From Euglena gracilis (taxonomy: Eukaryota): 64,000 nucleotides of DNA. The DNA lies in contig CP154954.1 in assembly GCA_039621445.1 (NCBI GenBank), forward strand, positions 43,565,847 to 43,629,846. The letters run 5' to 3'. The position numbers and the translations under genes were made by a program. Under the pieces are notes generated by a model. The model was given only the letters and a program-made list of their open reading frames with translations, searched no databases and had not been told where the DNA came from. The stretch's first letter is position 1, and each line of letters opens with the position of its first letter. Positions 9,802 through 46,461 of the stretch are shown piece by piece.

Positions 9802-12800
9802 ATGCCAGCTGCCGAAACCGCCATCGCTAGGGTGGTGGAGCCGGCGGAGGGCAACTCAGCCATGTACCAAACTCTGGATGTGCCAGCTGCCTGAACCGCC
9901 ATCGCTAGGGTGGTGGAGCAGGCGGATGGTTTCCCAGCCATGAACCAAACACTGGAAATTCCAGCTGCCTTAACCGACATCGTTAGGGTAGTGGAGCCGG
10001 CAGATGGTTTTGCCGCCATGTACCAATCACTGGAAAGCAACAGGAGGACTGAAACTGAACAAGACGGCACAGACATTACAGTGCCACGGACATGCAATGA
10101 CAGCCCACGTGTCATTGCCATGGTGCACATGGACCAGGACGACACCGAACAGACCGGTCCAGCACCAGATTACACAGAACTGGACGAAAACGACGAACCG
10201 TACTTCGACGAACAGGTGTTTGCACCACAAAACTGGAACCAACAGCCAGAAACGGACACTCAGAACAACCAAAACTGGCAAACCGCAACAGCACAGCAAC
10301 CAGGAACCCAGAGTTTTGCACTGGTGGCGGTACGACAGAGCCCGGAACAACCAGACCGCCTCCAGGGTGAAACTGAAACTTCGTTCCAGGAACCTTCGTA
10401 CAGCTCGTACGAGATTCCACAGCCGGAACCACAGAACCAGAACACTGACTGGGACTGGTGGTCGAACTTTGCGTACGAAACTGGACAGCTGACCCAGGAA
10501 TTTCAACAGTTCAGACGCAAAACTGAACAGACGAACCAACAAACGGCAGAAACTCTGCAGCAGCTGCAACAAACAACAACGGAATGGGTCAGCGAACTGC
10601 ATGCAACAGTGAACAGACAGGGTGAAGCACTCATGACAGAAATAAACGGCAGACACGAAGAACAGACAACAGTGCTGGTAACAACACAGGCAAACATGGA
10701 ACAGGTGAACGTTAACCAGAACAGACTGTACCAGGAACATTTCAACGGAATGTCACAGGAGATCACAGCAATCAGGGAAATGTCTGGCTCACTGGGAGAA
10801 AACCTCAGGGAATTTCACAGTTTTCTGCAGATGGCAGGTGGAAACGCACAGAACCAGGGTGAACATCTGGTTGGTTTACTACACCGACAGCGAGAAAACG
10901 AAAAAACAACTGCAGAACTGCAACAGAGATTAGCTGTGGCAGGAGAACGGGTCGCAGGAATCACAGGCAGGCATAGTGGACGAAACTGTGGCAACAGTGT
11001 CCAGAAAAGTTGAAAACCTCAGAGGCGAAATCAGCAGTGTGGTGGAAAGAATTCAGAAGGACATGGGCAGTGAAATCGGAAATCTGGCAGGACGGGTTCA
11101 GCAGCAGGAAACAAAAACGACAACAACCATTCAAAACTGTGATTACCTGCACAAAAAACTGGTGGAACTGCAGAAAATCCCAGATCAGCAGCAGCAGATT
11201 ACACAGCTGAACGAGGAAATCGGCAGACTGAAACGACAGGTGGAAACTCTGACCTGAAACGAAGAAAAACACAAACAACGCACTGAACGCCTGAACCTGG
11301 AGCAACCTGGGTCACAGGGTGGACGAAACAGCCCAAACGACTCAAAAACTGCTGGGTGAACTACAAAAAGTGACCATTAAAACAGGAACACATGACACAT
11401 CTGAACATGCCAAATGGCTGGAAATGACATCTGCCATTGGCTCAATGACAACCAGTGTCGGTCAACTGGAAGCAAAACTGGCTGGTCTCACAGCAAAAAC
11501 TGCAGAACGGGAAACACATGACAACGGCATTTGGCAGCATTTACATTCTCTGACCACGGAACTGCAAACACAGCAGAAACGGTGGACAGAACAGCTGGTG
11601 ACCCTGGACAGAAAACTCAGTACAGTGACAAAAACGACTGAAAACCTGACCGAAAAACTGGAAAGGCAAAACACCCAGCAAATTACAACCCCCAGCCCTA
11701 GCCTGGCTGAAATACCCAAACTTTTTGAAAATCTTTGCATTTCCTCTCGCCCAGCCTGCACAGGGGCCTTCGGGCCAGAGTCAGGGGCCAGCCCCCTGGC
11801 CAGTGGGCCTCCCTCGAGGACCCAGGCTGGACAGCCAGGGGCAGCCACAACGGCCCAACGGACTGAACAACCCCCCCAGGGGGCAGACAGGGCCGCGGGC
11901 CAACGGGGATCGGGGACCCACAACCCCAGAACCAGCCCCCGGCAGCCCTGAGGGGCCAACCCACAGGACAACACGGGACGGGGACCCCAGAACCCCACAC
12001 CTGGCAGACGGGGAGGGGGACCCCACAACCCCTGGCCCAGCCACGACCAGCCCTGAGGGGCCAGCCCGCAGGAAACCAAGGGACGGGGACCCCAGAACCC
12101 CAGGCCTGTCAAACGGGGACGGGGACCCCACAACCCCTGACAGGTATGTTCAGCCAGAGCAGCCAGCAGTGGGGGGACGAAACACCACACCCAAAAATGG
12201 AAGGAGGAGCTGCAGCACTGGGGACCGTTAACTCGGCTTCCCTGGTGGGGCAGCTCATCCAACAACAACTGAAAACTGCCTTGACACCGTTAATTGCCCA
12301 ACTGACTAGACAAACAGAACGACCGACTGCAGTCCCGATCAGCCCAGCACTTACGACAAACCCGACAAGCCCAGCACCACAGCCAACCCAGCCGACTCAA
12401 CAGCCAGTGACGACACAACAAAACCCACAGTCCCGGACTCGGGGCTTGTTCATGTGGGCAGACGAAACCGAAACTCAGAACACAGCCACAACAACCTGGG
12501 TGGGACCCCAGATGGGGTCTACCCAAACTGCCATCCACCACATAGGAGAGGAAACAGTGGTGGCACCCGTGGCAACGGCCCCGGCAGCATCCTTCGGGCT
12601 GCTGCTGGGTCCAGTGGGCGCGGCGATGACAAAAGACCTGGTAAGACCAACACTGCAGGGGAATTTCGCAGATTTTGCCGTTAAATTTCCAATGTACCTG
12701 CAACGTGTGTCAGCCGGTCAGGGGTCCCTGACCGACGACCTGAAACTGTCACTGCTGGAGGGCAGCCTGGACAGTGCCAGCAAACTGGAACTACAACGCG

Positions 12801-14005
12801 GACAGGAACGCGGTGAGAAAAAAAAATACCAGGAATTTTGGAACTGGATGTGCCAGAAATACGGTGGAGACACACAATCAGCCATCAAAGACGAACTGAA
12901 AAACCTGAGACCAAAAACGGAAGGAAAACTGACACTGGAAGCGTGGAGGGATTTTGAGGCCCATTTCAAACTCCTCTACAGCAGGCTGGAAAATCCATCA
13001 GAGGAAGACGCTTACAACCTGGAGGCCGAAAAGATGCCTGAAACGCAACGCAGAAGCTGCATCAGGGAACAGGCCCGCAGAAATCAGGACAGACCGACAC
13101 TGAAACTGAAAGGGGTCACAAACATTAAAAACGTCCCAGATGCAACAACGGAAGACGTTCGTGACCTGGTGGCAGCAACAGTGGGCACAGGTGAAAATTT
13201 TCAGGTGGCACGAGACGGACAAAACTTCAGGATCCAACTGCACAGCAGCAGAGCTGCTGAACTGCTCCTGATGAAAAACGGTTCAACGTTGCTGACTGGA
13301 CACAAACCACAGTTCACGCAGGTGCAAGCCAAACTCACATTGGCCGAACTGTTCCAACGGGTGGAAACCGAACTCAGGTGCCAGCAACAGTCAGACTCCC
13401 TGGGTAGGGGGTACAACGGCTGGCAGAACCAACCTCGTGAAAACAGATCACGGTCGATGGACCGCAGCGGTTACGTCAGGGAAGTCAAGGAGGAGGAGAA
13501 AACAAAATCCAGAAGTCGGACACCACCTTCCAGATCCCGACCCAACTCCCCTGGACCTCGAACCCCAACACCTGAAAAACCCAGACCCCCTTCTCCACGC
13601 CAGCCGGTGGCCATGGCAGTTTCAGAACAGCCTGGCCAGGGACGGTACACAAACTGGTCAGACTGGGGACAGAACGACTGGGGCAAAGGCAAAGGAAAGG
13701 GGAAAGGTCAAAGCTGGGGTTCAACCCAAAACTGGAACCAGAACCAGAACTGGAATCAGAATTACGGCAAAGGCTACGATTCAGGAAAGGGATACAACTC
13801 TGGGAAAGGATACGATTCTGGGAAGGGGAGCGGGAAAGGAAAAGGTAAAGGGCAGCCACAGCCACAGCCAGCAGCAACGAAAACTGAACCACAGCCACAG
13901 CAAACCAATTCACAGGAGCCAGCCAACCAGCCACAGGGACAGCCAAAGGCAGAAGCATCTTCCAGCAATCGCTGGCAGCCAGTTCAAAACGCAGAACGGA
14001 AGTGA
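9802..14005 (+). pseudogene. gag: Element A gag (very long, coiled-coil N-half, fragmented)
   Basis: Consecutive + strand ORFs 9910-11013, 10976-11257, 11319-11951, 12146-14005, homologous to B gag. The true start is uncertain. Confidence 0.8.
9805..10035. repeat. 3 x 78-bp coding tandem repeat at A gag start
   Basis: CCAGCTGCC... units at 9805, 9883 and 9961. Confidence 0.8.
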
Positions 14006-14239
14006 AGGGGGTGCGGCCTGAGGGTAGGGGACGAGAGGGGCGACTCTCTGCAGACACAACCGAAACAACAAAACAAAACAAGGGAACCAGGTCCAGAGCC
14101 GCAGCGGTCATACACACTGGGTAAGGGATGTAAGAAAAAACCCCAAAAGAAAAACATCCTGACAAAAAAACGACTCCACAGCCCAGAACCGAAAAGGGAA
14201 CAAGTCAGCTACAGGTTCGGCAGAGCAGCTTCACGGTGG

Positions 14240-14750
14240 GTGTCTGAAAACTACCACGTGAAGGAAGAAAAAATGACAGAAATTCTCTCACACTTCGGGG
14301 TCCAACCCCAGCTGGATGCCTTTGCAACCAAAAAAAACAAAAGATTCCCGCAATGGTGGGGATCGGACAGCCCAGATGGAACTGACGCCTTTGAAAAAAA
14401 CTGGCACGGAAAACTGCTGTGGATGAACCCCCCATTCAGCAAAATTTCACAGGTGGTGAAGAAAATCCAAACAGACGAGGCCCACGCACTTCTCATGGTA
14501 CCAAGATGGGTCCACAGAAAATGGTACAGGGAAATCAAAAAGCTGGCCGTGATATCAATGTTCATCCCAGCAGGAACAAAACTGTTTGGACAGGGTGACA
14601 AGAACTGCAGGAATACACCGTGGTCTGTGGAAGTGTTTTTGGTATGCGGACACAAAACACGGTGCAAGTACCTACCAGGTTTCCACAAACATTTCACCCC
14701 CCTACACCCGACATCCAAGGTGAGGTTCGGCACAGCCCATGAATACCCGC
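14240..14750 (+). CDS. Element A Dam-like N6-adenine DNA methyltransferase domain (pol frame, uninterrupted)
   Basis: QPQLDAFA...DAFEKNW..LLWMNPPFS...LLMVPRW. Confidence 0.88.
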
Positions 14751-14887
14751 CAGCGGAGGACGAGGTGGAGGGTGGTGAACAAAAAACCGACTTGGGGACG
14801 GAAAAACCACAGAAACACACCAGAAAACTGCAGGAGCCAGCCACAGCGACTCCAGAACGGGCCATTGCAGAAAAACCAAAACCACAA

Positions 14888-14969
14888 ATGCTGGACCTGT
14901 TCTGTGGAACAAAATCGGTCAGCAAGGTGTATGAAAAAATGGGTTTCCAGGCGGTGACGGTGGACTCAG
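14888..14969 (+). pseudogene. Element A C5-cytosine methyltransferase, N-terminal part
   Basis: MLDLFCGTKSV...VTVDS in frame with the Dam domain; cut by element C. Confidence 0.88.
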
Positions 14970-14971
14970 AG

Positions 14972-15395
14972 TGTACGTCCAAAGCTTTCCCTTTTCCCCT
15001 TTTTGGAACTTTCTGTAAAAGCCTTTCGCTTTCGCCTTGGTGCGCAGCCTACTTATGGTAGGGAAAAGTCTTTGGAGTAACGAAAAGTGGTTTTCCCCTT
15101 TTCTTCCCAATTCCCCAAGAAGCAAAGCACAAAGCAATGTCTCAGAAGTTTCTTCTGAGTTCAGTCTTGATTGTTCCAAGGGTTTTTCCCTCTGACAAAA
15201 CCAATGGTGAAACTTGGAATTGATGACAGTAAAGAATACCACCTGTGGGGGAAGGAGAGAAAAGTGCTGACGTGTCCAGGGGCAGATCCCAGAAGGGTCT
15301 GCCACGATCTTACCAGCTGTGGTTCCACAGTGGTGCGACCGTCACAGAACCCACTCTGCAGATATCCTACAGAGCTGGGACGTGCCTGGTACACA
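14972..15395 (-). repeat. 3' LTR of element C
   Basis: TG..CA; adjacent PPT GGGAGGGGGA (- strand, 15396-15405). Confidence 0.95.
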
Positions 15396-16796
15396 TCCCC
15401 CTCCCAGGGCTACGCCCGATTTCCTTCATGGACCAGGGTTTCCCAGTCCAGTCAGGATATCTGACGCTGCCCCAGGTGGGGTTCACTTCTCCATTCGGTG
15501 TCTCTCCTTTCCGCACAGTGGCATCCACCCAAAGCCCAAAAACGCGCAAAAGGTTAGCCGCGTTTCGCGGTTACCTATTAGCCGTTTCGGCTTAGGTGGG
15601 GTGTGAAAAAGCCCACTGTGGGAAACGGGGCTTGGCAGGTTTCCTGACAAAGTGTCCCATCCACCCACTTTGGGTGTGCCAAAGGCACGCGGGGTTGGTC
15701 AAGCGATTCGCTGAAAACCCGAGGGGAGAGGTGTGGAAGGGGGGCAGGCTCCTATCCTGGTCATACCCGGATAGGGCTCCTAGGCGGTCATATCCGCACT
15801 AGGAAACAAAAGCCTACTTACAAAACCGACTGCCGGCGACAGCTTTGCGGGGGTGGGGGGAAAGTAGAGAGGAGAGGGGGGCTGGCTTAGGCCAGAACAG
15901 AATTTTTGCTGTCTGGCAGCCTTAAGGGCCTTAGGGCCGAAAAGTGACAAGTTGGCCTATTATTACGGCGTGCGCGCTGTTTGCTGTGTGTCACTTAGCG
16001 GCTTGCCAGGTTTCCCGGCTGCCAAGGTATTCACAGCAGTAGCTCCTTCACGACGCAATAAGAGGCGATTACCTCTCGCAGACGGTTTCCGTCCGCATGG
16101 CCATTGGCAGAGGGGCAGGTGGCAGGGGGGGGGGGCTCTTGGATGCTTCCATCCAGAGCGTAGAGTGACACAGACCCAGGTTCATCCCAGGGCTGTTTAG
16201 CGATTTCCGCTACCATTGTATATATATATATAGGATATGGATGTCCAGGCTCCATGAAGGCACTTACCTTACATGAGCCTGGGAATGCCGTTTCGGCATT
16301 ACATCCGTTCCAGCCGCCAATAATCATGGCGGGAGTCCAAGGGATCTTCCACAAGGACCATCTGGAATTGTGGTGGTGGTGGCCTATCTACGAGCCAGGT
16401 TTCTGGCGATTCGTATTCGAAATCAGGTGCCACCCAGTCCCGAACCCATCCTTCGGGGACTGTGTGCTTGGTTGCACTCGCTCTTTCCGCGAGGAACCAT
16501 TGCAGCTTCTCCCAGAATTTCCTGGGTAGAGTGGCTGGCCAGATGAAGTAGTTCATCCTTGGGTGATTGGCTGACACCTGCGGGGCATTCCCCGGGTGGA
16601 AGTCAATCGGCATGTGATAGGCGCATTCCGCCCGGACTGTATGGGGTCGTAATACGGCCCCAAGCCAGTCTTTCCAGGTCATCCCGTGGCTTTCGGGTGG
16701 CCATTGTGGCAGGCACCAGCGACCGTTTCGGTCCTGGTTTTGGAACAGGCGGAAAAGTATCTTTTCCCTGTCTGCTGTTTCCCAGAGGTAAGGTAA

Positions 16797-19700
16797 TCAT
16801 ACCCCTGCCTCCTCAGCAGCGAGGCGTATCGCCCCACTGTCGATCTGCCACCCACGGGCCATTCCCGTGTGGCGGTAGTCGTCGAGCTTGAGGTTGGCAT
16901 ACTTGAAAAAGTCCTTGAACGTTTTGTTCAAGGTGGAGTATTCCTCCAGTGGCTTCTCGGCACTTGGCACGATTGTGCGTACTGCGCCTTCCGCAGTGTG
17001 CCAAAAGGTACCTCGAAGGCAGTTGACGCAGAGAACTGGTACATTCGTACCGTCTCGGTCTGTGTAGCTGAAATTGTGCTTGTGGGTCCAACTGTCCACG
17101 CACTTGGCGCATACCAAGGCGGCACAGTTAGGGATGTATACATCCTTGTGGAACGATTTCCGATCCACAGGGTTGCACACATGGACGAGGGGTAATCCCA
17201 GGTCAAGTGCCCTGTTGTACATCTTGTGGCATACAGTGCAAAGCCACACAAAACGGTTTTCCGTTGTTTTGTCGATGAGGAATTCCTCACCGAAGAATTG
17301 GGCCAAAACACGGGGAGATCTGGAATTGTAATAATTCCAGGTCACATTCTGATCAAAGGACCATTTCCGTCCCTGACAGAACAGTGGTTCAATCCACCGG
17401 TTAAGGCATTGCTGTGTCCTCAATTTATGTGTAATCATCATGTACCTGTTTTTCAGGTCATGAATGTCAGGGTCATCCTGATTGATCGCGTTCCAGTCGA
17501 TGACAACTTCGTCTTCTGAAGGTGTCTCGGCTGTCGAGGCGCGGGATTTTCCCTGCCCCTTTGTCGGAGGTTTCGGCTGTGAGGTTTTCCCATAGCCGGA
17601 TGACGTGACATGCGTGAATCCTTGTCCCGAGGTTAATCCCCGAGAAGAGGATGCAGCACTCTGGCCGCCAGCACCACCACCGCCTTTCGGTGGGGGCTGA
17701 TCACCAGATTTCGGTGTGGGTTTGCAAGGTGCGGCGCCCGGTTTACTTTTCGCCGGGGCCTTCGGGCTTCCGGTTTCCGGAGTCTCCGAGGGTCGCCGCT
17801 CGGCGTCTCGTTTGCTTGCCCACGTGCGTGGTGACGCTTGGGACGGGGGTCTTTTCCCCGACGCCGAACGTCGTTGACCTTCAGCAGGGGTTTCCCGAGC
17901 TGATGGTCGTCCTACACGCTCCTTCGCGGCTCCCGAAGGTTTCCCAGGGGTAGCCGTGGGGGATGGTGTTGGTGTAGGCCTAGCCTGTGCACTTCGCGCT
18001 GGCTGAGCCTGTGGTGGAGGCATGGACGCCCGCTCGGCCTGTTTTTCAGACGCCGGTGTCCATGTGCCTTGACGCTTCTCTGCCGTGACTGTGGCTGTAC
18101 CGTGAGATACGGGTTCATCCCGTGCCTCCGGTGGTACCGCCGGTGTCGATACAGGATCATCCTGTACTGACACGGCTGGTGTTGTCTCCACAGTCATTGC
18201 CGTCTGTACGCCTTCCGTCCGTGTCGCTTCCGACACTGGCGGTGGCGCTGCCGTTGGGGGAGGTTCATCCTCCACCATGGCTGCAGATGTGTCTTCCGTC
18301 AGCTGGGCAGTTTCCGCCGCAGCTGTGGAAGAACTGGCCGCAGTGCCACGTGGAGTGACTACTGCGATCAGTGACCGTAAACCACCGAGTACGCGTCCGC
18401 CTAGTGAGGTGCGTCTCTCCTCACCTGAAGTGGGCTCCTCGGCTGGCTCTTCTGTTGACGGGGCTTCCCCGGAAACAGGGAGCTTGAGGCGTAATACCTC
18501 AGGCGTGTGGGGTACCGTTTCCGGCGGGTTTTCCCGCGGAGGGGTTGGTACACCCGCTGTACCCAGTGAGGCTGGTGATAGAGGGACAGGTGTCATTTCA
18601 CCTGCTTGTGATCCTGGGTGTTGGGCGGTTTCTGCCACAGTATCCAGCATCACTACCGATGGGCTACGGGTTTCCCGTGCCGGAGGTTCCGTTGGCTGAG
18701 GTTCATCCTCAGCCATGGGGACCTCCTCCTCCTCCTCGTCCGCTTCCGGAGAGGATTCGGCTGCGTGTAGCTGTGCTGCAGAACGCGGGTCTTTCCCGCT
18801 CCTGTAGCACCCTTGTGCGTTTGACAGGCGGAAAAAGCTAATACTTTCACTCCTGTCAGAGTTCGGGTATGGGGGTGGCCACGTCGCTCTCACCCAGCTT
18901 TCGGGTGGAGGTTGTGGTTGATCATCGTCGATCAAGCAAAGGTCTTCCCACTGCCGTCGACAATGGTCAGTCACGCCAAACTCTCCTGTTTCTTCCAGGA
19001 ATGCTGGCAGTGGCAACGCGTAACGAGGGACTTCCCCTTCGTGCGCCGCGAAAAACATCTGAAAATCCTCCCATATCAGGATATTCCCGAATTGGGTATC
19101 CAGGTGTTCTTGGAGACCTATTTCGGCCTCTTCCCAGTCTGGTCGTAGGTTCATCCTGCGCTGGTCTGGGTCATTGGGTCTGGCGTTCACCTCCATATAT
19201 CCCCGCGGCAACCACTTTCTGTGGATTTCCACATCGGCGGTCATATATTCCAGGAAATATATGTAGACCTCTAGGACGTAGGTAATCCACGCCCTGTGCC
19301 AGTACTGCTGCAGCAGAAATATTTTCTGCCGGTGCTGTTTCAGCACCTTTCGGTCTTGCGTTCCAATCCGGGGATTCCGGCACTGATGCAGGAGGAATCT
19401 CCTGGTCGGCTGGCTGCCGGCATTCTCGGCAGACGGAGGCGGTTTTCCGCGTTCTCCGAAACCCCAGAAGTCAACGATGTGGACTTCCTTGCAAAACTGG
19501 CATTCCAGTTTGTACCGCTGGGGGTACGCGAGGTCCACGTCCAATACCTTGAACAGCATGCCATACATGCTGTCCAAGAAGACTTGGAGGTTGTTCGTGA
19601 ACATTACCGCAGCCGGTGCCTGGAGTTTCTCCGGCAGGGGGTAATACTTCCACTGGATTCCCAGTGCGCTGACTGAAAACATGTGGTTGAAGATTTCCTT

Positions 19701-20717
19701 CAACTGTGCAACGAACGTTTCGCCGTCTTCACAGGTATTCAGGCAATCGGTATACGTCAGACCGTTTCGGTCGGTAAAAATGCCGAAATTCTGGCAGGGG
19801 TATCCCAACCAGAACCACAATTCCCAGAAACCAGGCATCTGGTCCAGGACAACTTCATTCGAATGAGGGTATCCCTCGAACGCATGAAGTTCGGCACTGT
19901 AGAAAAAACGTTTGCAGTGATCGTTCATACGATTCTGCACCACTTCGAGCACCGCATCCGGTGGTCGGTGGATCACGTTGCCTGCCCTTGTGAACTTTAG
20001 GAGATCTTCGTCGATTTTCGGCCAGATCTCCTCCAGGTACTTGAACACTGAGGCAACGTCATAATCCTTCGTTTTCGAAGGTTCGGCGGCTTTCCCGCCC
20101 TTACCTGCTGGGGGTCCGGCAGATTTTCCGCCTTTGCCTGGAGCTGACCAGGCGGCTTTTCCACCTTTGCCAGGTGGGGCTTTCCCACCTTTCTCCTGGC
20201 CTTTTCCTTTCCCCTTACCTTTACCCTTTCCTTTACCCTTGCCCTTTGTGTTTGACAGCCATTCGAATGTCGCCCGGTATGGGTCAAAGTATTCCCAGTA
20301 TTCTGGGTCTTCTGGCGTAAACACTGGGTAAGTCACGGATTCCGTGCTTGGCGTCCGAGCAAATTCCTGCTCAGCATCACCACGATTCGAGTAAACCGGT
20401 GCGACTGGGGATGGTCGGGTTTCCCGACGTGCCCGTTCTGCCGTCACGTCTGGCGCTGGCGGAGCTTCCTCCTCAGCGTCGACATGCATCGCCGCGGGCG
20501 GATTTTCCGACCTCGGCGAGCGGCGCTGTGGCTGCGGCGTCAGATTTTCCGGGCCGCGGTCACGCTTGCCGGCGGCAGAACTTGTGGGCCGTGCTAGAGG
20601 CGCTTCCGCCACAGCAACGTCCTGCTGTCGCGCTGGTTGACTTGATCGTGATGGAGCTGGGACTCCTGTGAGAGCCGACACAGCAGCATCATACTGCTGG
20701 CGCTCTTCCCGTGTCAT
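16797..20717 (-). CDS. Element C accessory protein, 1306 aa, unknown function, Cys-rich (RING/PHD-like) C-terminus
   Basis: Long uninterrupted ORF with two globular-looking regions, a GKGKGK tract and CTVC..HVC..CAALVCAKC..CVNC. Confidence 0.8.
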   Translation of the reverse strand: MTREERQQYDAAVSALTGVPAPSRSSQPARQQDVAVAEAPLARPTSSAAGKRDRGPENLTPQPQRRSPRSENPPAAMHVDAEEEAPPAPDVTAERARRETRPSPVAPVYSNRGDAEQEFARTPSTESVTYPVFTPEDPEYWEYFDPYRATFEWLSNTKGKGKGKGKGKGKGKGQEKGGKAPPGKGGKAAWSAPGKGGKSAGPPAGKGGKAAEPSKTKDYDVASVFKYLEEIWPKIDEDLLKFTRAGNVIHRPPDAVLEVVQNRMNDHCKRFFYSAELHAFEGYPHSNEVVLDQMPGFWELWFWLGYPCQNFGIFTDRNGLTYTDCLNTCEDGETFVAQLKEIFNHMFSVSALGIQWKYYPLPEKLQAPAAVMFTNNLQVFLDSMYGMLFKVLDVDLAYPQRYKLECQFCKEVHIVDFWGFGERGKPPPSAENAGSQPTRRFLLHQCRNPRIGTQDRKVLKQHRQKIFLLQQYWHRAWITYVLEVYIYFLEYMTADVEIHRKWLPRGYMEVNARPNDPDQRRMNLRPDWEEAEIGLQEHLDTQFGNILIWEDFQMFFAAHEGEVPRYALPLPAFLEETGEFGVTDHCRRQWEDLCLIDDDQPQPPPESWVRATWPPPYPNSDRSESISFFRLSNAQGCYRSGKDPRSAAQLHAAESSPEADEEEEEVPMAEDEPQPTEPPARETRSPSVVMLDTVAETAQHPGSQAGEMTPVPLSPASLGTAGVPTPPRENPPETVPHTPEVLRLKLPVSGEAPSTEEPAEEPTSGEERRTSLGGRVLGGLRSLIAVVTPRGTAASSSTAAAETAQLTEDTSAAMVEDEPPPTAAPPPVSEATRTEGVQTAMTVETTPAVSVQDDPVSTPAVPPEARDEPVSHGTATVTAEKRQGTWTPASEKQAERASMPPPQAQPARSAQARPTPTPSPTATPGKPSGAAKERVGRPSARETPAEGQRRSASGKRPPSQASPRTWASKRDAERRPSETPETGSPKAPAKSKPGAAPCKPTPKSGDQPPPKGGGGAGGQSAASSSRGLTSGQGFTHVTSSGYGKTSQPKPPTKGQGKSRASTAETPSEDEVVIDWNAINQDDPDIHDLKNRYMMITHKLRTQQCLNRWIEPLFCQGRKWSFDQNVTWNYYNSRSPRVLAQFFGEEFLIDKTTENRFVWLCTVCHKMYNRALDLGLPLVHVCNPVDRKSFHKDVYIPNCAALVCAKCVDSWTHKHNFSYTDRDGTNVPVLCVNCLRGTFWHTAEGAVRTIVPSAEKPLEEYSTLNKTFKDFFKYANLKLDDYRHTGMARGWQIDSGAIRLAAEEAGV

Positions 20718-21736
20718 TTCCGCCCGGGCAGGGTATCCCTGGCCAGCGGAAACAGGGGGCGACGTGCGATTTGTCGTTGGATCGTCACAGCATATTCATA
20801 CTGTTGACGCTCCTCCTCAGTCTCGAACGGCCGACCAGTCCACGGGTTAACGGGTTCATCCCGTGCCGGGGGAACTGGTGCCGCACGAGGCGCTGCCGCG
20901 GCTTCCCGCGGACGAGCGCTTCGGGCAGAGTCAGACGCCGGGGGAGGATTTCCCTCCGCAGGACGTCGTGGGATAGGGTCAGGTATAGTTGGGTGGGGTT
21001 GAGGTGGATATACGTACTGATCCTGTGGCCTTGGCGCCTCCTGGGGATAATCCCCAGAGACGGCGTACTGAGACACATGCTCCTCTGCAGGATAATCCCG
21101 CCGGGGCACGCGCTCAGGGGATCTAAAAATGCTTTCTTTCACGCGTGGGTGTTCACTCCGGACAGGTGCTTCCACTGTCTCTTCCTCGGGTAATCCGGGG
21201 GAGTGAGCACGAAAATGTGCAGTGTAAGTGCCAACTGGTGGTACCTGCCGTGCGACCTGTGGCGGGACTTCCACGCCCAGGTCACGCATGGTAATGTCTG
21301 CCGCGAATCCCGACGCGTCCGGGTCGGTGTAATACACCAGACCGGTCATCGTCGCCTGGGCGCACATACACCACAGGGCTGGAGGGGTATTCGCGATGGT
21401 CAAAACTTTACGGCAGTGGTCATCCCACAATGCCTGTGTGAGTTGGTCTGGTGCCGGGTTTGCGCTCATACGCATAACCCGGTTCATCGTCTCCGCCGTG
21501 CGGTGGATCATCACACCCGCATACGGTGGGAGGCGACGAGAGCCTGATGGCTGAGATGGCCGCGCTTCCGCGGGCATCTGGGTCATCCTGCTACTGCTGC
21601 TGGCTTCAGGGTTTCCCTGAGCCGCAGTCCGTGCAGGTGGCTGCGTACCGTATCGGTACGCATACTGGTCAGGTTGAGGGTGAGTGGTGGGGTGGTAAGG
21701 CGGTCCTCCGCCTGGCTCCCTTCCGCCGGGCAGCAT
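20714..21736 (-). CDS. Element C accessory ORF, 340 aa, Pro-rich; possibly a frameshifted N-terminus of the 1306-aa ORF
   Basis: ATG-initiated ORF downstream of pol; ATGA overlap with the next ORF; both share an EERQQY motif. Confidence 0.65.
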   Translation of the reverse strand: MLPGGREPGGGPPYHPTTHPQPDQYAYRYGTQPPARTAAQGNPEASSSSRMTQMPAEARPSQPSGSRRLPPYAGVMIHRTAETMNRVMRMSANPAPDQLTQALWDDHCRKVLTIANTPPALWCMCAQATMTGLVYYTDPDASGFAADITMRDLGVEVPPQVARQVPPVGTYTAHFRAHSPGLPEEETVEAPVRSEHPRVKESIFRSPERVPRRDYPAEEHVSQYAVSGDYPQEAPRPQDQYVYPPQPHPTIPDPIPRRPAEGNPPPASDSARSARPREAAAAPRAAPVPPARDEPVNPWTGRPFETEEERQQYEYAVTIQRQIARRPLFPLARDTLPGRK

Positions 21737-21898
21737 ATTACCGCCCGGGGACGGTACGGTAGGATGTTGGGGTTGTTGGTTGTAAGGTGTGTGAGGGTAA
21801 CCGCTTGAGTATTATTTGCTAAAAAGTCTGCGGAAAGAAAGAATGATAAGAATCAATGATAAAAAGAAGAGAAAACAACATGGGTTTCCCATGCGTTC

Positions 21899-24800
21899 TC
21901 AAAAACTTGTCATGGAAACATCAATGTTATGCTTCTTGTTCCACAGCTTCCAATCTTGCTGGACATACCCAACAAAACTGGTTGCTGGCTCCCAAGTGTC
22001 CTCCTCGGGCCCGTACCCTTTCCAGCGGACCTTCCAAAGGTGCATACCTTTGTCGATTTTGTGATCGATAATTTTATCGACTACAAAGTCGTCCGTCTCA
22101 GGTAATCTGGAACGGGGTTTGAAGTGCAAACACGGGATGGGTTTCCCATCCGGTGGCGACAGGTATGGTTTGAAGTCGTCCATATGAACGTCCTCAACAC
22201 CATTCGGTAATGCAACCTTGTAACGCCCGCTGGTACCTAGTCTTTCTAGGATTTCACAGGGGCCGAGCCAGAGGGGGTCCAGCTTGGAAGACTGCATGCG
22301 AGTACGGCTATTCCGTACCCACACGCGGTCACCGGGACTATAAACAGGTGACTTGAAATTCTGCAAAAACGATTTCCGTTTTGCTGCATGAATATCAGTC
22401 ACGCGCTTCTGGACTGCAGAACGTAGATTTTCTACTTCCGCAAACCAGGTCTCGCAACTGACACTCGTTCGGGCGGGTCTCTCCGAAGGGACATCCCCTA
22501 TGGCCGGAGGGTCCCGTCCGAAAACTAATTTATAGGGGGAGTGAGGTAAAACCAACCCTGGTAGGGTATTGATATAAAACAAAGACCATGGTAGAACTGA
22601 TATCCAGTTGCTGCGCGAGTCAGCCAGTGAAAGGCGAAGCATATTCACGACGGATTTCACGGCTGCCTCGGCTCTACCATTGCCTTTGGGTCGGTATATA
22701 ATGGAAAAATGTTGCTCGATTCCGAGTAAACCGCACAAAGTGGTGAAAAACCTTGAAGAAATCAAATGGTCTTGATCACTCACGATTTCATTCGGTAAAC
22801 CCATTAAGCAAATGCATTTCTCCAAAAATATAGCTGCCAAACTTTGGGCAGTCAACCCTGACTTCTGGCATGGAATGGCTACAATGTACCCACTCAGCCT
22901 GCAGACGACAACAAAAACGTAATCGTAAATTTTGTCGTCTGTTCCTTTGCACGGTTCTAATTCCAGAAAATCCATGCAGAGGGATGTAAAAATGTCAGGG
23001 GGTACGGGGAAAAAATCCATCGTACCAGGGGGGGTACCTCTGCGGGGTTTTACCGCTTGACAAATTTGACACCGTTGCGCTATTCGCAAACAGCGTGAGT
23101 AAAGCTCTTTCTCGCTCAGGGTTGTACAGTACCTGCGGCCCACCAACGAAAGAAGTTTGGGGGCCCCAGGGTGACCATGGTTGTGATAACACAAAATCAC
23201 ATCATCAACCAGGTCCTGGGGGATACAATATTTGTAACCCGATTCATTGCGAAAAACCAACCGTAAAGGTGAAAGAGTGTAATTGTCCAGCACTTCGCCA
23301 TTACGAAGTCTGGTGACAATGGTGTCATACACCGGATCACGACTATAATCCCATTCGCGAAAGAACAGTGGGGAAGGGGACTCCGTGCGCGTAATACGCC
23401 GGGGCCCGGACGTGCTTCCACGTCGGCGCCTTCCTCGCACTGGTGCGACCAGGAATAGTTGTGAAACGGGAAAAGAATCCAAAAGATTGTCCGCAGCGTC
23501 GTTTCGACGTGCGTACTCGTCAGCTTCCTGACTTCCATGAAAAGTCGCGTCTCCCTCATCCGGGTTCCCAGGGTAATACCAAGGGGCCCGACTGAGCGGA
23601 TCCGCTACTTTTTGTGTGTGTCCAGGGGTATAAATAACCACAAGGTTGAATTGACTCAAGAACTCATGCCATCTGCATCGCCTTCCGACCGATGACATGG
23701 CCTTGTTCAAATCCTCGGTGTACCAGTGTTGGAGACTCTCATGGTCGGTCTTGACGAGGATCTGGACGAGGCTGCTGGCTACCCAGCTTCGGAATTTCTG
23801 GAGTATAAGCACGATTGCGTAGGTTTCCTTCTCGCGTATACTCCATTTGACTTGACCTTTTCCATCGTCGCCCTGTAACTTTCTGCTGAAGAAAGCCACA
23901 GGTCGGAGCTCATTCGCCGCATTATGCTGGCTAAGAACTCCGCCAACAGCATAATCGCTGCTGTCGACTTCCAACACGTATGGTTTGTACGGGTCCGCGA
24001 TTTCGAGGACAACATTCTCCAAAAGCAAAACCTTGATTTTCTCAAGGGCCTCGCGCATTTGGTCATCCCAAATGACTTTGGTATTGTCAACAGCCCGGTT
24101 TTTGAGCTGTTTGGTGAGGGGCACCGCGATTTTCGCGAAGTCCTTCATATAAATCGCGTAGTATTGGGCTAATCCCAAAAATCCTTTGAGGTGAGTAATC
24201 GTTTTGATTACCTCAGGGGTCCATTTCTTAATAGCTTCGAGTTTACTCGGAGCGGCTTTCCGCTGTCCATTGCTGAGGATGTGACCGCAAAATTTTATGA
24301 GATTCCGAAACAAATGCATTTTCGCGCCTTTCGCGAAAAGCACATGTTTTTGAAAAGCGGCTAATACCGCGCAAACATGGTGGAAATGTGTGACGAGGAT
24401 ATCCTCACTCGATTTTGCGGATGGTGGTGGTGTTCCCACCAGCACATCATCAATGTACACAATGGCAAACGGTAAATCGCGTAGAACCCATTGTATCATG
24501 CGCTGAAACATGGCTGGGCCATTCTTAACACCCATGGGGAGTACCGTCCATTGGTACACACCCTTGGATGTCACGAATGCCGTGTATGGTTGGGAGTCAG
24601 GGTGTAAGTGCATTTGGTGAAAACCGTCCTCCAGATCGAAAATTGACCACAACCGGTTTTCCGATTGTTTGGTGATCAAATCCTCGATCAGGGGGAGCGG
24701 GAAGGGATCATCCCTTGTTTGGGAGTTCAGGTACCGGTAATCCAGCACCAGCCTCCATTTCTTCTGACCTGAGGGGTCTGGGGGTTTAGGAACAACAAAT

Positions 24801-25195
24801 GCCTGGGATGTCCACTCGCTTTTCGAGGGTACTATCCACTTGCGCTGAATAAGCTTCTCAATCATTTCATTGAGAGCTTGTTCGCGTTCTCCCGAACAAC
24901 GAAAAAATTTCCGGTGCATTGGTTTGGCTCCATCCTTAAGCTCGATCTTACAAACACCGAACGGACCGCGTATCGCGGGGTCGATGTCGCACGCGTATAC
25001 TGGATTTTCCAGCACACCGTGGAATTCGCGGGTAATCCGCGAACAGAATTCGGCTGACTTAGGATGCTGACCTGCACTCTCGATGACTGCGGAAACCGCC
25101 AGGGTATCCCTGGGGCTACCGAGCTTCCTCGGCACCGCGAATTCGGACATTCCGAATGCATCGAAGAAACATACACGAAAAATGATTTCTTGCAA
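21899..25195 (-). CDS. pol: Element C pol: RT, RNase H, integrase, chromodomain
   Basis: WRLVLDYR, LPMGVKNGP, YIDD; LEVDSS, TDH, ADPLSR; HHCC finger, MDF..SDQD..GNGRAE, LWLGPC; VDKIIDH..VRWKGY..DTWEP. This stretch is uninterrupted. Confidence 0.97.
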   Translation of the reverse strand: MQEIIFRVCFFDAFGMSEFAVPRKLGSPRDTLAVSAVIESAGQHPKSAEFCSRITREFHGVLENPVYACDIDPAIRGPFGVCKIELKDGAKPMHRKFFRCSGEREQALNEMIEKLIQRKWIVPSKSEWTSQAFVVPKPPDPSGQKKWRLVLDYRYLNSQTRDDPFPLPLIEDLITKQSENRLWSIFDLEDGFHQMHLHPDSQPYTAFVTSKGVYQWTVLPMGVKNGPAMFQRMIQWVLRDLPFAIVYIDDVLVGTPPPSAKSSEDILVTHFHHVCAVLAAFQKHVLFAKGAKMHLFRNLIKFCGHILSNGQRKAAPSKLEAIKKWTPEVIKTITHLKGFLGLAQYYAIYMKDFAKIAVPLTKQLKNRAVDNTKVIWDDQMREALEKIKVLLLENVVLEIADPYKPYVLEVDSSDYAVGGVLSQHNAANELRPVAFFSRKLQGDDGKGQVKWSIREKETYAIVLILQKFRSWVASSLVQILVKTDHESLQHWYTEDLNKAMSSVGRRCRWHEFLSQFNLVVIYTPGHTQKVADPLSRAPWYYPGNPDEGDATFHGSQEADEYARRNDAADNLLDSFPVSQLFLVAPVRGRRRRGSTSGPRRITRTESPSPLFFREWDYSRDPVYDTIVTRLRNGEVLDNYTLSPLRLVFRNESGYKYCIPQDLVDDVILCYHNHGHPGAPKLLSLVGRRYCTTLSEKELYSRCLRIAQRCQICQAVKPRRGTPPGTMDFFPVPPDIFTSLCMDFLELEPCKGTDDKIYDYVFVVVCRLSGYIVAIPCQKSGLTAQSLAAIFLEKCICLMGLPNEIVSDQDHLISSRFFTTLCGLLGIEQHFSIIYRPKGNGRAEAAVKSVVNMLRLSLADSRSNWISVLPWSLFYINTLPGLVLPHSPYKLVFGRDPPAIGDVPSERPARTSVSCETWFAEVENLRSAVQKRVTDIHAAKRKSFLQNFKSPVYSPGDRVWVRNSRTRMQSSKLDPLWLGPCEILERLGTSGRYKVALPNGVEDVHMDDFKPYLSPPDGKPIPCLHFKPRSRLPETDDFVVDKIIDHKIDKGMHLWKVRWKGYGPEEDTWEPATSFVGYVQQDWKLWNKKHNIDVSMTSF

Positions 25196-25278
25196 GGGTG
25201 GTAATATTTTACCACAAACTCCTCAAAAATCGGTACATTAGTGGGTAAATCCCACCAATGAAAACATACATACGATAG

Positions 25279-26952
25279 TTAGGTGAACCATTCCGCTTCC
25301 GGAATGATGGGTATGAGAATAACTCCACGGGCTTCATCCCGCAGAATTTTCTCAACCGCACATTCGATAAGTTTTGGGGGAGGGTGCATCCATAACACCG
25401 TATCACCCCAAAATTTATCAAATGCGTTGGAGTGTTGTGACCAATGACGTGGCAAACGGGCATGTGCATTGGATGAGAAGGCATCGATTTCCAATGCCAA
25501 ATCAAAAGAATCAGCCAATGTCGCGATTTTGGAAAACCATCGTTCCAAAATGCGATATTGACCAAAATTGAAAGCATTCCATACGCGTTTCGCGTATTCA
25601 TGCACCCGTTTTCCGGGTTGAAGTGAAGAAACACAATGAATGGATCCACAAACATGCGGGCTGTCTTCCACTACCACAAGGGTTAATCCCAAGGGAGTTT
25701 GGACAGGTTGGGGGTTTCCCCATTCCGCATCAAATCCGTACCAAGTGTGATCGCGATTGTAATTAGGAATCGCGCTTTTCGCGTTTCCGAACAACGAGGC
25801 TAATCCGCGTTGTTGGAGTACTCGGTGTATCTCCGCGCATTGCGGGCTACAACCAAGTGTATCATGGGGGGTGGATTCCGTTTTCGGAATTGCGATTAGT
25901 GTCGGATTTTGAACTAAACATCCACAATCGAAATCCGATTGGGTGGAAATTCTCCTGCAGTGCACACATTGGAAGGAAGTGTAGTGGTGTGACGGGTGTG
26001 CGTGTACGTGGGTGTCGATGGCATTAGCCGGTGAGTCTTGTACAGGTGTGCCTGGATTCGGCACAACTGGTGGGAAACGGAGTGGTGGTGTAGCTGGGCG
26101 ACTACTCGACACCGTAATTACTTCAGGCCTTTGGGCTTTCGTCTTGTAACCCAGTGAAACGGCGGGGGTACCGCTACTCGCTTGCCCTGCCTCATGTGGA
26201 ACGCATGTTGGTGTGTCATTGGGCAGGGGGGAGGCTTTCTCCGTACCCCGGGTGTGGAAAACGGTTGTTGGTGTGGTGGGTAACGGTGTTGCCATTGTGG
26301 GTAACGGTGTGGGAAAAGCGGTGGTCATCATAGTGGATGACAACGGTGATGGTGGTTTGGGTGTCAATGAAGTGGTGGGTGCTGTGCGCAAACCGTGGGA
26401 GTGGCAATCCACAACCAATCGGTACTGGCGTAAAAATGGGTATCCCAAAATTACGTCAGACCCGTGAATTCCGGACTCGTAACCCCAAATATTGGTGAAA
26501 TGTTGTAATTGTGGGGGTTGTGAGTGATGCTTCGGAATGATGGGCAAGAGTATCTCGAGCACACATCCCAAATCACCACCACACATGGGGGTGTTATCCG
26601 CGGTTGTAATTTTGATCGGTTTCTTGGCGCTTACCAAGAGCGGGGTCGGTATCAACCCCAACCGAAAGAGCAGTGCAATGCGACAACCAGTGTCAATGAG
26701 AATTTTGACTTTGGTGGAGAAATTTTGAATGCGGATTTCCGCTTGGACGAGTAATTCCATTGGTGGTACGCAAAGTGAAGGGTCTGGCGGAAATACGTTT
26801 GCATGCCAGCTCTCCCATGAACCCTTTCCTACTTTGCTCAGCATTCCGAGCGGAAATGTGGAGTGGGGGGTAGGGGACCCGAAATAATTCCGGGTACTGA
26901 CCGTGAAGGCGGATGGGCAGGGGGGGTAAGGTTGATCAGGTCTTACCTCCAT
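25279..26952 (-). CDS. Element C aspartic protease followed by Dam-like domain (5' part of pol; separated from RT by one stop and a frameshift)
   Basis: ILIDTGC..DVILGYPFL; then LEIDAFSS..NAFDKFW..LWMHPPP..GVILIP..EWF. Plausible coding sequence continues past the TAA (LSYVCFHWWDLP). Confidence 0.85.
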   Translation of the reverse strand: MEVRPDQPYPPCPSAFTVSTRNYFGSPTPHSTFPLGMLSKVGKGSWESWHANVFPPDPSLCVPPMELLVQAEIRIQNFSTKVKILIDTGCRIALLFRLGLIPTPLLVSAKKPIKITTADNTPMCGGDLGCVLEILLPIIPKHHSQPPQLQHFTNIWGYESGIHGSDVILGYPFLRQYRLVVDCHSHGLRTAPTTSLTPKPPSPLSSTMMTTAFPTPLPTMATPLPTTPTTVFHTRGTEKASPLPNDTPTCVPHEAGQASSGTPAVSLGYKTKAQRPEVITVSSSRPATPPLRFPPVVPNPGTPVQDSPANAIDTHVHAHPSHHYTSFQCVHCRRISTQSDFDCGCLVQNPTLIAIPKTESTPHDTLGCSPQCAEIHRVLQQRGLASLFGNAKSAIPNYNRDHTWYGFDAEWGNPQPVQTPLGLTLVVVEDSPHVCGSIHCVSSLQPGKRVHEYAKRVWNAFNFGQYRILERWFSKIATLADSFDLALEIDAFSSNAHARLPRHWSQHSNAFDKFWGDTVLWMHPPPKLIECAVEKILRDEARGVILIPIIPEAEWFT

Positions 26953-26997
26953 CTGTTCATCAGCCCAGAGGTCCGTGCCCTCGGACCTCGGGCTCCC

Positions 26998-30651: not shown

Positions 30652-31373
30652 TCCAAAAGGCCCACCGGTGCTTCCACCGGGGATCTTTTGGGTGTGAACA
30701 GAGCAAAGGGCAAATACCCCTCACTTTGTTCATGGGTAACATGAGTAACCAAGTGTGAGGGTGCAAGGGGTTCATCCCCTCGCCGCATCAATGATGGGTG
30801 AATCGGGATGGAGGAAGGCATTTTGCCACCTACATCCCGCACAATCAATGACAATGATGATGAAGAGGGTTCATTACCCCCATGCAACAATAAAGGCGTT
30901 TCGCCTTTTGACAATGACAAATGAGTCAAATTGCCTTCTTCTTGCTTGGGGGGTCGGGAATTGGAACTTGTTTCATTCAAACCGTTCCAATCCCCGCAAT
31001 CTTCATCACAATTGCTCAATGAACTCATCAACAAGTCATAATCAAATTTGGGGTTGGGGCTTGTGCTCTGCATCTTTTGAGATGGGTAAAAAGGCAAAAA
31101 CCCAAAAATTCACACAAATAAGCAGAGAAACAGGGACCAGAAAGGTTGTATCGGCGATTACCGAACAGAGCCTTCTGAGACCTGTATCCTTGCTTAAAGG
31201 TTGGCTAGGGGCCAGGAACAGTACTTTCACCGTGTTTCACGGCTCAGTACGATCCTCACCACCAGTCAACCGCAGAGTTTCTCTGTGTGGAACGTCTGTG
31301 TGGGATCGTTGCCTAAATCTGCTACCAAGTGTATTACCTGGTAGCCTTTCTTTCTGTAGGATCTTTGACCTAT

Positions 31374-31383
31374 TCTGCTACCA
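31374..31383 (-). promoter_or_regulatory. Primer binding site of C (initiator tRNA-Met type)
   Basis: TGGTAGCAGA, 2 nt after the 5' LTR on the - strand. Confidence 0.85.
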
Positions 31384-31385
31384 AG

Positions 31386-32330: not shown

Positions 32331-32489
32331 TACGGCAAACCAGCCAAGCCCAGGCCGTGCAGCAACAACCGCTGCAGCAGCCCAGCCCTGCCCAGACTGC
32401 ACGACAAAACATGCTCTCACAGCCCAGCCCAGAACTGACAGGTCAACAGCCAAACCCAGATTCAACTGACAAAACAGAACCAGACCAAA

Positions 32490-46447: not shown

Positions 46448-46449
46448 AA

Positions 46450-46461
46450 TGGTAGCAGAGG
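46450..46461 (+). promoter_or_regulatory. Primer binding site of B (initiator tRNA-Met type)
   Basis: TGGTAGCAGAGG, 2 nt after the LTR. Confidence 0.88.

Follow-up and report, generated by a model that had tools for sequence, protein, structure and literature searches.

Element C, a complete minus-strand Ty3/gypsy LTR retrotransposon with a chromodomain, occupies positions 14970 to 31809 of a 64,000-nucleotide stretch of Euglena gracilis DNA (here referred to as the window) and carries two long sense-strand open reading frames between pol and its 3' LTR. We hold, with slightly better than even confidence, that these frames are a real accessory gene module encoded by the element, made up of ORF340 and a gene of ~1,470 codons, and that the module would supply an intracellular zinc-dependent nucleic acid or RNP cofactor from a subgenomic mRNA. 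The backbone of the element contains the following features:

31384 to 31809, minus strand: 5' LTR of 426 bp, with 99.53% identity to 14970 to 15395.
26998 to 30522, minus strand: gag-like ORF of 1174 aa with a coiled coil and two CCHC knuckles, terminating in TAG.
25279 to 26997, minus strand: continuation of the gag frame after the TAG, with a protease-like DTG (LIDTGC) and a weak Dam-like domain.
21899 to 25150, minus strand: pol, with RT, RNase H, integrase, and chromodomain (Pfam).
15396 to 16298, minus strand: 3' untranslated region, with a GC pattern that is not coding-like, and polypurine tract GGGAGGGGGA (15396 to 15405).
14970 to 15395, minus strand: 3' LTR, identified by comparison of the LTR pair and by the target duplication.

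Element C is young: its LTRs differ at 2 of 426 bp, a 5-bp target duplication (CTCAG) lies on either side at 14965 to 14969 and 31810 to 31814, a PBS-like sequence (TGGTAGCAGA...) directly follows the 5' LTR, and the polypurine tract is present. For information on other copies, we used contigs from four sequencing runs (X15 to X18), three of which are RNA by our guess; in X17 and X18, contigs span the unoccupied insertion site of the element. The pol domains were recognized by Pfam with E values of 4.9e-25 (RVT_1), 5.3e-23 (RT_RNaseH), 1.5e-09 (rve), and 4.4e-10 (Chromo), and the order RT, RNase H, integrase with a C-terminal chromodomain is that of a chromovirus-like Ty3/gypsy element. The gag TAG is followed by G and then by a strong hairpin. 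Within the post-TAG continuation, the Dam-like match (PF05869) spans profile positions 22 to 103 of 169 and scores 18.6 bits, compared to a cutoff of 28.1; an HPPP in this stretch occupies what we take to be the place expected for the Dam catalytic tetrad. An Rfam search over element C yielded nothing relevant, and neither internal repeats nor a second target duplication marking a nested insertion was found in the element. The accessory region and the spacer that precedes it are arranged as follows:

21737 to 21898, minus strand: T-rich spacer separating pol from ORF340; it contains two pol-frame stops and a polypyrimidine tract whose terminal CAG lies at 21828 to 21830.
20714 to 21736, minus strand: ORF340, 340 aa, Pro-rich and mostly of low complexity, with a C-terminal EERQQYxYAV motif.
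16797 to 20717, minus strand: ORF1306, 1306 aa, the open reading frame between ORF340 and the 3' LTR.
20073 to 20717, minus strand: ORF1306 residues 1 to 215, with a conserved N-terminal motif (MTREERQQY...VPAP), an acidic-aromatic patch, and a basic GK/PGKGGK tract.
18798 to 20072, minus strand: ORF1306 residues 216 to 640, aromatic-rich core domain with CxxC...HxC.
17493 to 18797, minus strand: ORF1306 residues 641 to 1075, low-complexity linker.
16800 to 17492, minus strand: ORF1306 residues 1076 to 1306, C-terminal Cys/His domain with 10 Cys.
16797 to 16799, minus strand: single in-frame TGA of the accessory frame, aligned to Glu in the relative P0005 and likewise open in P0010.
16299 to 16796, minus strand: Trp-rich extension of 165 codons in the ORF1306 frame, ending in TAA (16299 to 16301) and containing a 127-aa ORF that starts at 16682.

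As the original prediction had stated, ORFs of 340 and 1306 aa lie on the sense strand in the interval from pol to the 3' LTR and are joined by an ATGA overlap, the junction reading ...GGAAATGACAC.... The longest open frame of the 5.5-kb region is 1332 codons; in 500 shuffles, the value averaged 184 and peaked at 328, and the open frame of ORF340 (365 codons) also exceeds the shuffle maximum. GC content by codon position is coding-like in the core domain (0.57/0.37/0.64) and in the extension, while synonymous codon usage gave no discrimination between frames. The region had also been described as ~5 kb of intact coding sequence, a label that stands only with a qualification: the frames are far above chance, but the larger one runs past its TGA for 165 codons, and relatives lack a stop where this copy has one. 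This extension, which was not part of the earlier reading of ORF1306, is colinear across the TGA with the C termini of P0010 (E value of 8e-4) and P0005 (E value of 0.23), and five of the seven differences between copies among those listed for it are synonymous, where a fraction of 0.21 is expected. Because relatives keep the extension in one open frame, we take the accessory gene to be ~1,470 codons long. Since they are open at the TGA, the protein from this copy would be either truncated by a lesion or completed by read-through. We consider it quite possible, at about an even chance, that the TGA is a lesion of this copy; its context is not strong for read-through (TGA-T, with a downstream fold z of -1.99).

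A search of 1.84 billion representatives returned 15 relatives of ORF1306 at an E value of ≤1e-3, from a Euglena transcriptome and environmental assemblies. Four match the C-terminal domain (P0001, P0005, P0009, and P0010) and five match the core, namely P0011 and P0015 (27 to 30% identity) and the fragments P0004, P0006, and P0012. The linker relatives (P0002, P0003, P0007, P0008, P0013, and P0014) are open-frame fragments of diverged copies with 36 to 68% identity, and the Logan fragments P0006, P0008, and P0012 align partially, in a pattern like that of decayed copies. EukProt lists P0001 (43% identity and an E value of 6e-43 to the C-terminal domain) as a transcript of Euglena gracilis, indicating that a paralog is transcribed. 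Domain order, N-terminal start, and extension are kept in relatives, three of which begin with the N-terminal motif of ORF1306. No family match for ORF1306 was found in Pfam, NCBIfam, PHROGs, or PDB sequences, the last searched also with both alignments, and the best hits in profile searches were low-complexity histone-tail matches (E value of about 0.09). A word-index protein search with the core region (length window of 718 to 2286 aa) found nothing; the same type of search with alignment A1 returned only P0009, already an A1 member; and an Atlas search with the core gave no usable match. An exact lookup of four window proteins in the protein collection found none present. At the DNA level, alignment A1 gave 498 pattern matches in metagenome contigs and 42 in viral contigs, none of them confirmed as related loci, and a degenerate pattern for the VPNC..C motif had no match in metagenome contigs. 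Within the window, tblastn and HMMs matched only ORF1306 itself, with no second copy of either domain. For ORF340, a word-index search found no relatives among proteins of 187 to 595 aa, and Pfam, NCBIfam, and PHROGs gave no family match, with a single 13-residue subthreshold match in Pfam. From sequence comparison, ORF1306 appears to be a large protein with zinc-binding-type domains unlike described families.

The GK tract, the aromatic core with CxxC, the low-complexity linker, and the C-terminal Cys cluster that had been predicted were all found. In order, the complete large protein would consist of the N-terminal motif, the basic GK tract, the core of ~420 aa, the linker of ~430 aa, the C-terminal domain, and the Trp-rich tail. 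The GK tract spans residues 157 to 173, with PGKGGK repeats onward to ~215, and residues 151 to 215 have a net charge of +14. The gag-like ORF of a neighboring element has a similar GK tract at its C-terminal end. The core contains 14 Trp and a CQFC at residue 406, and P399, Q400, C406, E411, G419, and R423 are invariant across relatives. Ten Cys/His residues are invariant in the C-terminal domain (C1160, C1163, H1164, H1179, C1181, C1198, C1203, C1206, C1230, and C1233) and probably make up two zinc-ribbon-type sites; across the domain alignments, invariance falls on Cys, His, Trp, Pro, and Gly. AlphaFold2 models of the C-terminal domain (5 sequences) and the core (6 sequences) had mean pLDDT values of 35 and 45, respectively, and a VIA-align fold search of the core model against 48,161 chains gave only single-long-helix matches (Z ≤ 5.3), which are meaningless. 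Given the low confidence of these models, the function of the large protein can only be inferred. The +14 GK tract, the similar tract in the neighboring gag-like ORF, and zinc-ribbon profile hints below the cutoff (Pfam scan of 8 proteins) suggest a zinc-dependent nucleic acid- or RNP-binding cofactor that would act in the element's own replication.

The large ORF had originally been read as a possible E3-like zinc finger or anti-silencing protein, which we considered as a RING-type finger or a factor directed against host defense proteins. Such a role would fit the presence of at least eight invariant Cys/His residues within 74 residues of the C-terminal domain, the chromatin-related modules (DAM, DNMT, and chromodomain) gathered by elements of this genome, and the RING-bearing clusters among the Atlas feature neighbors of the domain. 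However, these neighbors score 0.83 to 0.88, under the 0.9 line, with low recognition (1755), and no RING, PHD, or IBR profile was found at an E value of ≤1 in 8 proteins, 4 of them C-terminal-domain relatives, or at ≤0.1 in the whole of ORF1306. The weak profile hints point instead to zinc ribbons. In the RING/PHD cross-brace consensus, the second and third ligand pairs stand close together, whereas the invariant pairs here (C1160/C1163, H1179/C1181, C1203/C1206, and C1230/C1233) are separated by 15, 21, and 23 residues; with 21 residues between pairs 2 and 3, the spacing does not match a cross-brace. An E3-like or anti-silencing factor is, in our estimation, quite unlikely.

In our preferred reading, a separate cofactor gene, ORF1306 would be translated from its own conserved AUG, on a subgenomic mRNA formed when the polypyrimidine-CAG of the spacer after pol serves as acceptor for cis-splicing or spliced-leader trans-splicing. 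Among four cistron starts, only that of ORF340 has, within 200 nucleotides (nt), an AG preceded by a tract with a pyrimidine content of 75% or more; the AG lies 91 nt upstream of the ORF340 ATG, with no ATG in between. Among 15 of the 18 joints in contigs of the four runs, none was a spliced or trans-spliced joint to this CAG. The alternative proposal of a frameshift within one protein of ~1640 aa was less favored. The 82-nt overlap of the ORF340 and ORF1306 frames lacks a canonical X XXY YYZ slippery heptamer for -1 frameshifting, and the N terminus of ORF1306 pairs with those of P0010 and P0015 starting at or close to residue 1, which favors a separate conserved start, although an indel confined to this copy is conceivable. 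An EERQQYxxAV motif occurs both at the end of ORF340 and at the start of ORF1306, with DNA differences mostly at third positions. A more elaborate version seems unlikely to us. In it, a two-gene module would found a new protein family, its two orphan zinc-binding domains being common to this element and uncultured relatives, and would belong to a small polycistron (gag-TAG-PR/DAM, then pol from a separate AUG, and ORF340/ORF1306) expressed through spliced-leader trans-splicing and through read-through of the gag TAG and perhaps also of the accessory TGA.

A doubtful but appreciable possibility is that ORF340, ORF1306, and the extension descend from one giant ORF of ~1,800 codons, with the ATGA and the TGA as postinsertion lesions and the gene dead in this copy. 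From the 2/426 differences between the LTRs, some tens of mutations would be predicted over 16.8 kb, so that one or two of a disabling kind are to be expected, and the relatives are open across the TGA. A frameshift that leaves an ATGA by chance is no rarity (about 0.16 by estimate). Two contig records spanning the junction (record 3 of X15 and record 9 of X16) each contain a single unplaced gap, so that other copies may have a fused frame. Similarly, a 464-nt skip joint (20475 to 20940) in one X16 contig would fuse both frames in phase, although it has a depth of 5 and a side of 29, and any skip of 2 modulo 3 (one in three) would do the same. Against a single ancestral frame, Met1 of ORF1306 aligns with the called N termini of P0010 and P0015 and so looks ancestral.

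Contigs of other copies (90 to 99% alike) cover the region in 4/4 runs and bridge the pol-ORF340, ORF340-ORF1306, and ORF1306 end-extension junctions, the last including the TGA. These bridges and the lack of a signal peptide, a membrane segment, and any env family match bear out the prediction of a non-env module belonging to the element. Insertion of an unrelated nested element was rejected, as there are no flanking repeats and the pol-ORF340 join is kept in other copies. Contig depth is lower at 17.7 to 19.4 kb, which we did not count as a finding. Variation counts rest on 40 of 1256 copy differences. Among the differences listed, 10 of 13 are synonymous in gag, PR/DAM, and pol combined, compared with four of nine in ORF1306 (P = 0.17 against 0.25) and one of four in ORF340, with constraint not shown for either accessory frame. 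The absence of demonstrated constraint on ORF1306 is compatible with a transduced host gene carried as passive cargo by one subfamily and having no part in transposition, as are the lack of this accessory region in all other LTR elements of the window and the annotation of the best relative (P0001) as a transcript only. However, the diverged copies (51 to 68% amino acid identity) and distant relatives (27 to 45%) form many short fragments, as in a repeat family, and both the architecture shared with relatives and the join to pol in other copies have been kept. We regard host-gene cargo as very unlikely.

Extra genes downstream of pol are common in LTR retrotransposons. To our knowledge, a function has been assigned to almost none of these post-pol accessory genes, CERV of Cer1 being the exception. 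By its position and orientation, the accessory region fits the sense aORF class (aORF-3S), with whose members it also shares the lack of recognizable homology and of an assigned function. Some known post-pol aORFs use a spliced subgenomic mRNA, e.g., Bagy2. Described plant examples are mostly env-like with transmembrane segments, whereas the element C module has none. In agreement with the original prediction, N termini are polar, and maximum Kyte-Doolittle means over 19 residues were 0.91 for ORF340, 1.16 for ORF1306, and 0.11 for the extension, relative to the usual line of 1.6; no signal peptide or transmembrane anchor and no envelope or fusogen Pfam family was found for ORF1306. At 340 plus ~1,470 codons over 5.5 kb, the module is larger than described aORFs, and it differs further in its euglenid host and its two orphan Cys/His domains.

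The best functional analog for a non-env cofactor, likened by description rather than sequence, is CERV of the Caenorhabditis elegans element Cer1, which occupies the place of env without encoding an envelope protein and whose homology is confined to its genus, according to the parts of the report drawn on here (Sun et al. 2023, PMC10309623). CERV is described there as a nuclear protein that is translated from a spliced mRNA and without which genomic RNA is not exported; it has 517 aa, with its N-terminal half derived from gag exons, and these parts report no zinc sites (PMC10309623). By analogy, the element C cofactor might handle genomic RNA or cDNA. The backbone of element C resembles DAM-LTR/EpiLTR of Euglena gracilis, Ty3/gypsy elements that, as excerpted, have a chromodomain and, placed between protease and RT, a stretch resembling Dam (Fernandez-Moreno et al. 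2026, bioRxiv 10.64898/2026.05.21.726589), although the Dam match of element C is below the Pfam cutoff. The portions of the DAM-LTR/EpiLTR main text consulted make no mention of a post-pol accessory ORF, which element C has (10.64898/2026.05.21.726589). Extra post-pol coding sequence common to several element families, in other hosts and with other proteins, is likewise described in the excerpts used here for bdelloid rotifer LTR retrotransposons, which captured additional ORFs (PMC5408684), and for plant Retand, with its long pol-to-3' LTR region (PMC11963269).

At present, the accessory gene of element C is a well-documented orphan gene rather than a mechanism. It is exceptionally large, with two conserved orphan Cys/His domains, and it belongs to an element among those noted for gathering chromatin-related modules. 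If it encodes a replication or host interaction cofactor, it would represent a new protein family for retroelement biology and would show how a retroelement expresses a downstream gene in an organism with spliced-leader trans-splicing. Should the polycistron and read-through version be true, element C would be a retroelement fitted to the way in which euglenozoans process their mRNA.

The accessory region belongs to element C, a minus-strand chromodomain Ty3/gypsy LTR retrotransposon with the following features.

14970-31809, minus strand: element C, a complete LTR retrotransposon with paired LTRs, a target duplication, a PBS-like site and a polypurine tract
Minus strand: gag-like ORF of 1174 aa with two CCHC knuckles, ending in TAG
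Minus strand: 572 codons in the gag frame after the TAG, containing a DTG like that of proteases and a part with weak Dam similarity
Minus strand, after a 129-nt AT-rich spacer: pol, 1083 aa, with RT, RNase H, integrase and chromodomain
20714-21736, minus strand: ORF340, behind pol
16797-20717, minus strand: ORF1306, behind pol, joining ORF340 in ATGA

The two LTRs, 426 bp each, are 99.53% identical, and the 5-bp duplication CTCAG lies on both flanks of the element. The PBS-like stretch TGGTAGCAGA follows the 5' LTR, and the polypurine tract GGGAGGGGGA precedes the 3' LTR. Contigs from two sequencing runs (X17 and X18) join both flanks without the element, and an empty site therefore exists. 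The accessory region is not bordered by repeats or by another target duplication, and contigs 90-99% alike cover it in four runs (X15-X18, three of them guessed to be RNA; the contigs show other copies, not expression). Record 16 of X17 spans the passage from pol to ORF340, record 3 of X15 and record 9 of X16 that from ORF340 to ORF1306, and record 24 of X18 the region of the TGA that ends ORF1306, where it differs at 29 places over 420 nt and has no gap. Copies vary in the length of their 3' UTR: immediately before the polypurine tract (window 15424-15819, minus strand), joints in X17 and X18 show 216-231 nt to be absent, and in X16 the stretch is replaced.

Element C interrupts another LTR element, which lies on the plus strand (9940-15061 and 31810-36189). 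The Dam domain of this host element passes the cut-off (32.9 bits, 14273-15061), and behind it comes a cytosine-methyltransferase motif of the DLFCG type, which the insertion cuts; RNase H and integrase follow after 31810. The host's gag-like ORF (12146-14005, plus strand) has GKGKGK and GKGY(D/N)S repeats at its end in place of a zinc knuckle, and GK tracts recur in unrelated proteins of the window's elements. The host resembles the "EpiLTR" architecture, and the backbone of element C the Euglena DAM-LTR elements, as presented in the main text of a recent preprint (Fernandez-Moreno et al. 2026, bioRxiv 10.64898/2026.05.21.726589). The window also holds a tandem pair of retroelement-bearing units (40571-50473 and 50647-60447, plus strand; ~10 kb each, 97-98% identical), a third copy 75% alike (32708-34905) and a short array of ~65-nt tandem repeats (3889-4263).

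Within element C, the base after the gag TAG is G, and 3 nt further on comes a strong hairpin rich in GC (-41.4 kcal/mol, z -2.65; 26901-27000, minus strand). As in read-through of the murine-leukaemia-virus type, this stop looks like a site of read-through rather than frameshifting. The Dam-like stretch beyond it (25279-25600, minus strand) scores 18.6 bits versus a Pfam cut-off of 28.1, aligns with no more than positions 22-103 of the 169 in the profile and shows HPPP at the place of the catalytic tetrad, which gives it the look of an eroded or truncated domain. Pol stands apart from the frame upstream of it: the 129-nt spacer has stops in all frames, and pol has its own ATG at 25150 (window 25151-25281, minus strand). 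Contigs from X15 and X16 match element C upstream of 25143/25150 and then diverge from pol; in relatives, another module may thus begin exactly here.

The two post-pol ORFs joined by ATGA are present as first described. Neither contains a signal peptide or membrane segment (maximum 19-residue hydropathy of 0.91 in ORF340 and 1.16 in ORF1306), and the GK tract, the aromatic core with CQFC, the long low-complexity linkers and the C-terminal Cys cluster were all found in ORF1306. The accessory frames are far beyond chance length, the longest being 1332 codons versus a maximum of 328 in 500 shuffles, which the 365-codon open frame of ORF340 also exceeds. What the original prediction missed is an open stretch past the end of ORF1306, where a single TGA (16797-16799) interrupts the frame and 165 open codons follow to a TAA at 16299. 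The TGA is without a context comparable to that of the gag stop (z -1.99). GC by codon position in this extension (0.61/0.46/0.61) is like that of both globular domains and unlike the 3' UTR, and five of the seven copy differences listed are synonymous (expected share 0.21; P ~0.013 for at least 5 of 7). The extension is colinear with the C-terminal part of one distant relative, P0010 (BLASTP E 8e-4); its match to another, P0005, has an E of 0.23 alone, yet directly continues the ORF1306 alignment. Both relatives are open at the place of the TGA, to which P0005 aligns a Glu. Because of these patterns the extension looks like coding sequence. Counted with it, the ORF1306 gene has ~1,470 codons, and accessory coding sequence spans ~5.4 kb (21736 to 16299).

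A phmmer search of 1.84 billion representatives with residues 200-1306 returned 15 matches at E<=1e-3, originating from EukProt (one), short ENA metagenome contigs and Logan contigs. Four fall on the C-terminal domain (residues 1076-1306; P0001 at 43% identity, E 6e-43, and P0005, P0009 and P0010 at 31-33%), five on the core (residues 216-640; P0011 and P0015 at 27-30%, and the fragments P0004, P0006 and P0012 at 51-65%) and six on the "disordered" linker (36-68% identity). P0001, the closest match to the C-terminal domain, is a Euglena gracilis transcript from EukProt; this and the DAM-LTR-like backbone point to E. gracilis as the most likely host organism. Invariant columns in this domain number 23, including C1160, C1163, H1164, H1179, C1181, C1198, C1203, C1206, C1230 and C1233; those of the core include P399, Q400, C406, E411, G419 and R423, within the motif YPQ.Y..C..C.E....DFWG followed by H.C. 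Judging from these alignments, both domains are under long-term constraint. The case for a conserved accessory module is weaker on three counts. Between close copies, synonymous excess is not significant in ORF1306 (4/9) or ORF340 (1/4) among 40 of 1256 differences listed, a set in which gag, PR/DAM and pol together give 10/13. ORF340 has no relatives among proteins of 187-595 aa and no family match in profile searches, and the module is absent from the other LTR elements within the window.

Whether one protein or two is made turns on the junction. ORF340 lies in the pol frame, separated from pol by two stops and a T-rich spacer, and ORF1306 lies in the -1 frame relative to ORF340, the frames overlapping by 82 nt (20795-20714) with no canonical slippery heptamer there. 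Translational coupling had been raised as one possibility for the ATGA overlap, which by itself is no evidence for it, since such a coincidence after a mutational frameshift has an estimated chance of about 0.16. Two observations speak for a true start of its own. From Met1 to residue 48, ORF1306 pairs gap-free with the first 48 residues of P0010, and its residues 18-58 match 14-53 of P0015, with E-values from a tiny search space without composition correction. In addition, an EERQQYxxAV peptide occurs at both the end of ORF340 and the start of ORF1306, and its DNA copies differ mostly at third positions, so both frames are read. Against a separate start, record 3 of X15 and record 9 of X16, which cross the junction, each have one gap of unlocated position, and a single contig of low depth lacks 464 nt, a skip by which the two frames would be fused. 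On balance, ORF1306 probably has its own conserved start.

Of the four cistron starts, that of ORF340 alone is preceded, within 200 nt, by a strong polypyrimidine tract with CAG at its end; 91 nt free of any ATG separate it from the start codon. This tract resembles a splice acceptor, from which a subgenomic mRNA would arise by retrovirus-style splicing or by spliced-leader trans-splicing, a process that Euglena uses (bioRxiv 10.64898/2026.05.21.726589). The acceptor stays a proposal because no joint to it occurs among those listed in the X15-X18 contigs.

The accessory protein matched no family and no sequence of a solved structure, fold searching produced nothing usable, and structure prediction gave no usable model of either the core or the C-terminal domain. 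The conserved ligands lie in series, as CxxC...HxC and CxxC...CxxC pairs, and their spacing departs from the RING/PHD cross-brace consensus; the sub-threshold profile hints are to zinc ribbons only. The E3-like zinc finger first suggested is not supported, and together these features suggest a zinc-stabilised binding module. The GK/PGKGGK tract of ORF1306 has a net charge of +14, and a similar tract stands at the C-terminal end of a neighbouring element's gag-like ORF, which suggests nucleic-acid binding.

Additional ORFs on the sense strand downstream of pol have been described before (PMC7264820; PMC5408684; PMC11963269). The literature searched holds no description of this gene, and the main text of the DAM-LTR preprint mentions no such ORF ("additional orf" and "accessory" both occur 0 times). 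One non-env protein in the post-pol position has been characterised, CERV of Cer1, which exports genomic RNA (PMC10309623). The accessory region is likely a real, element-encoded non-env gene; tentatively, its product might act inside the cell as a cofactor of element C's cycle that binds nucleic acid or RNP in a zinc-dependent way.
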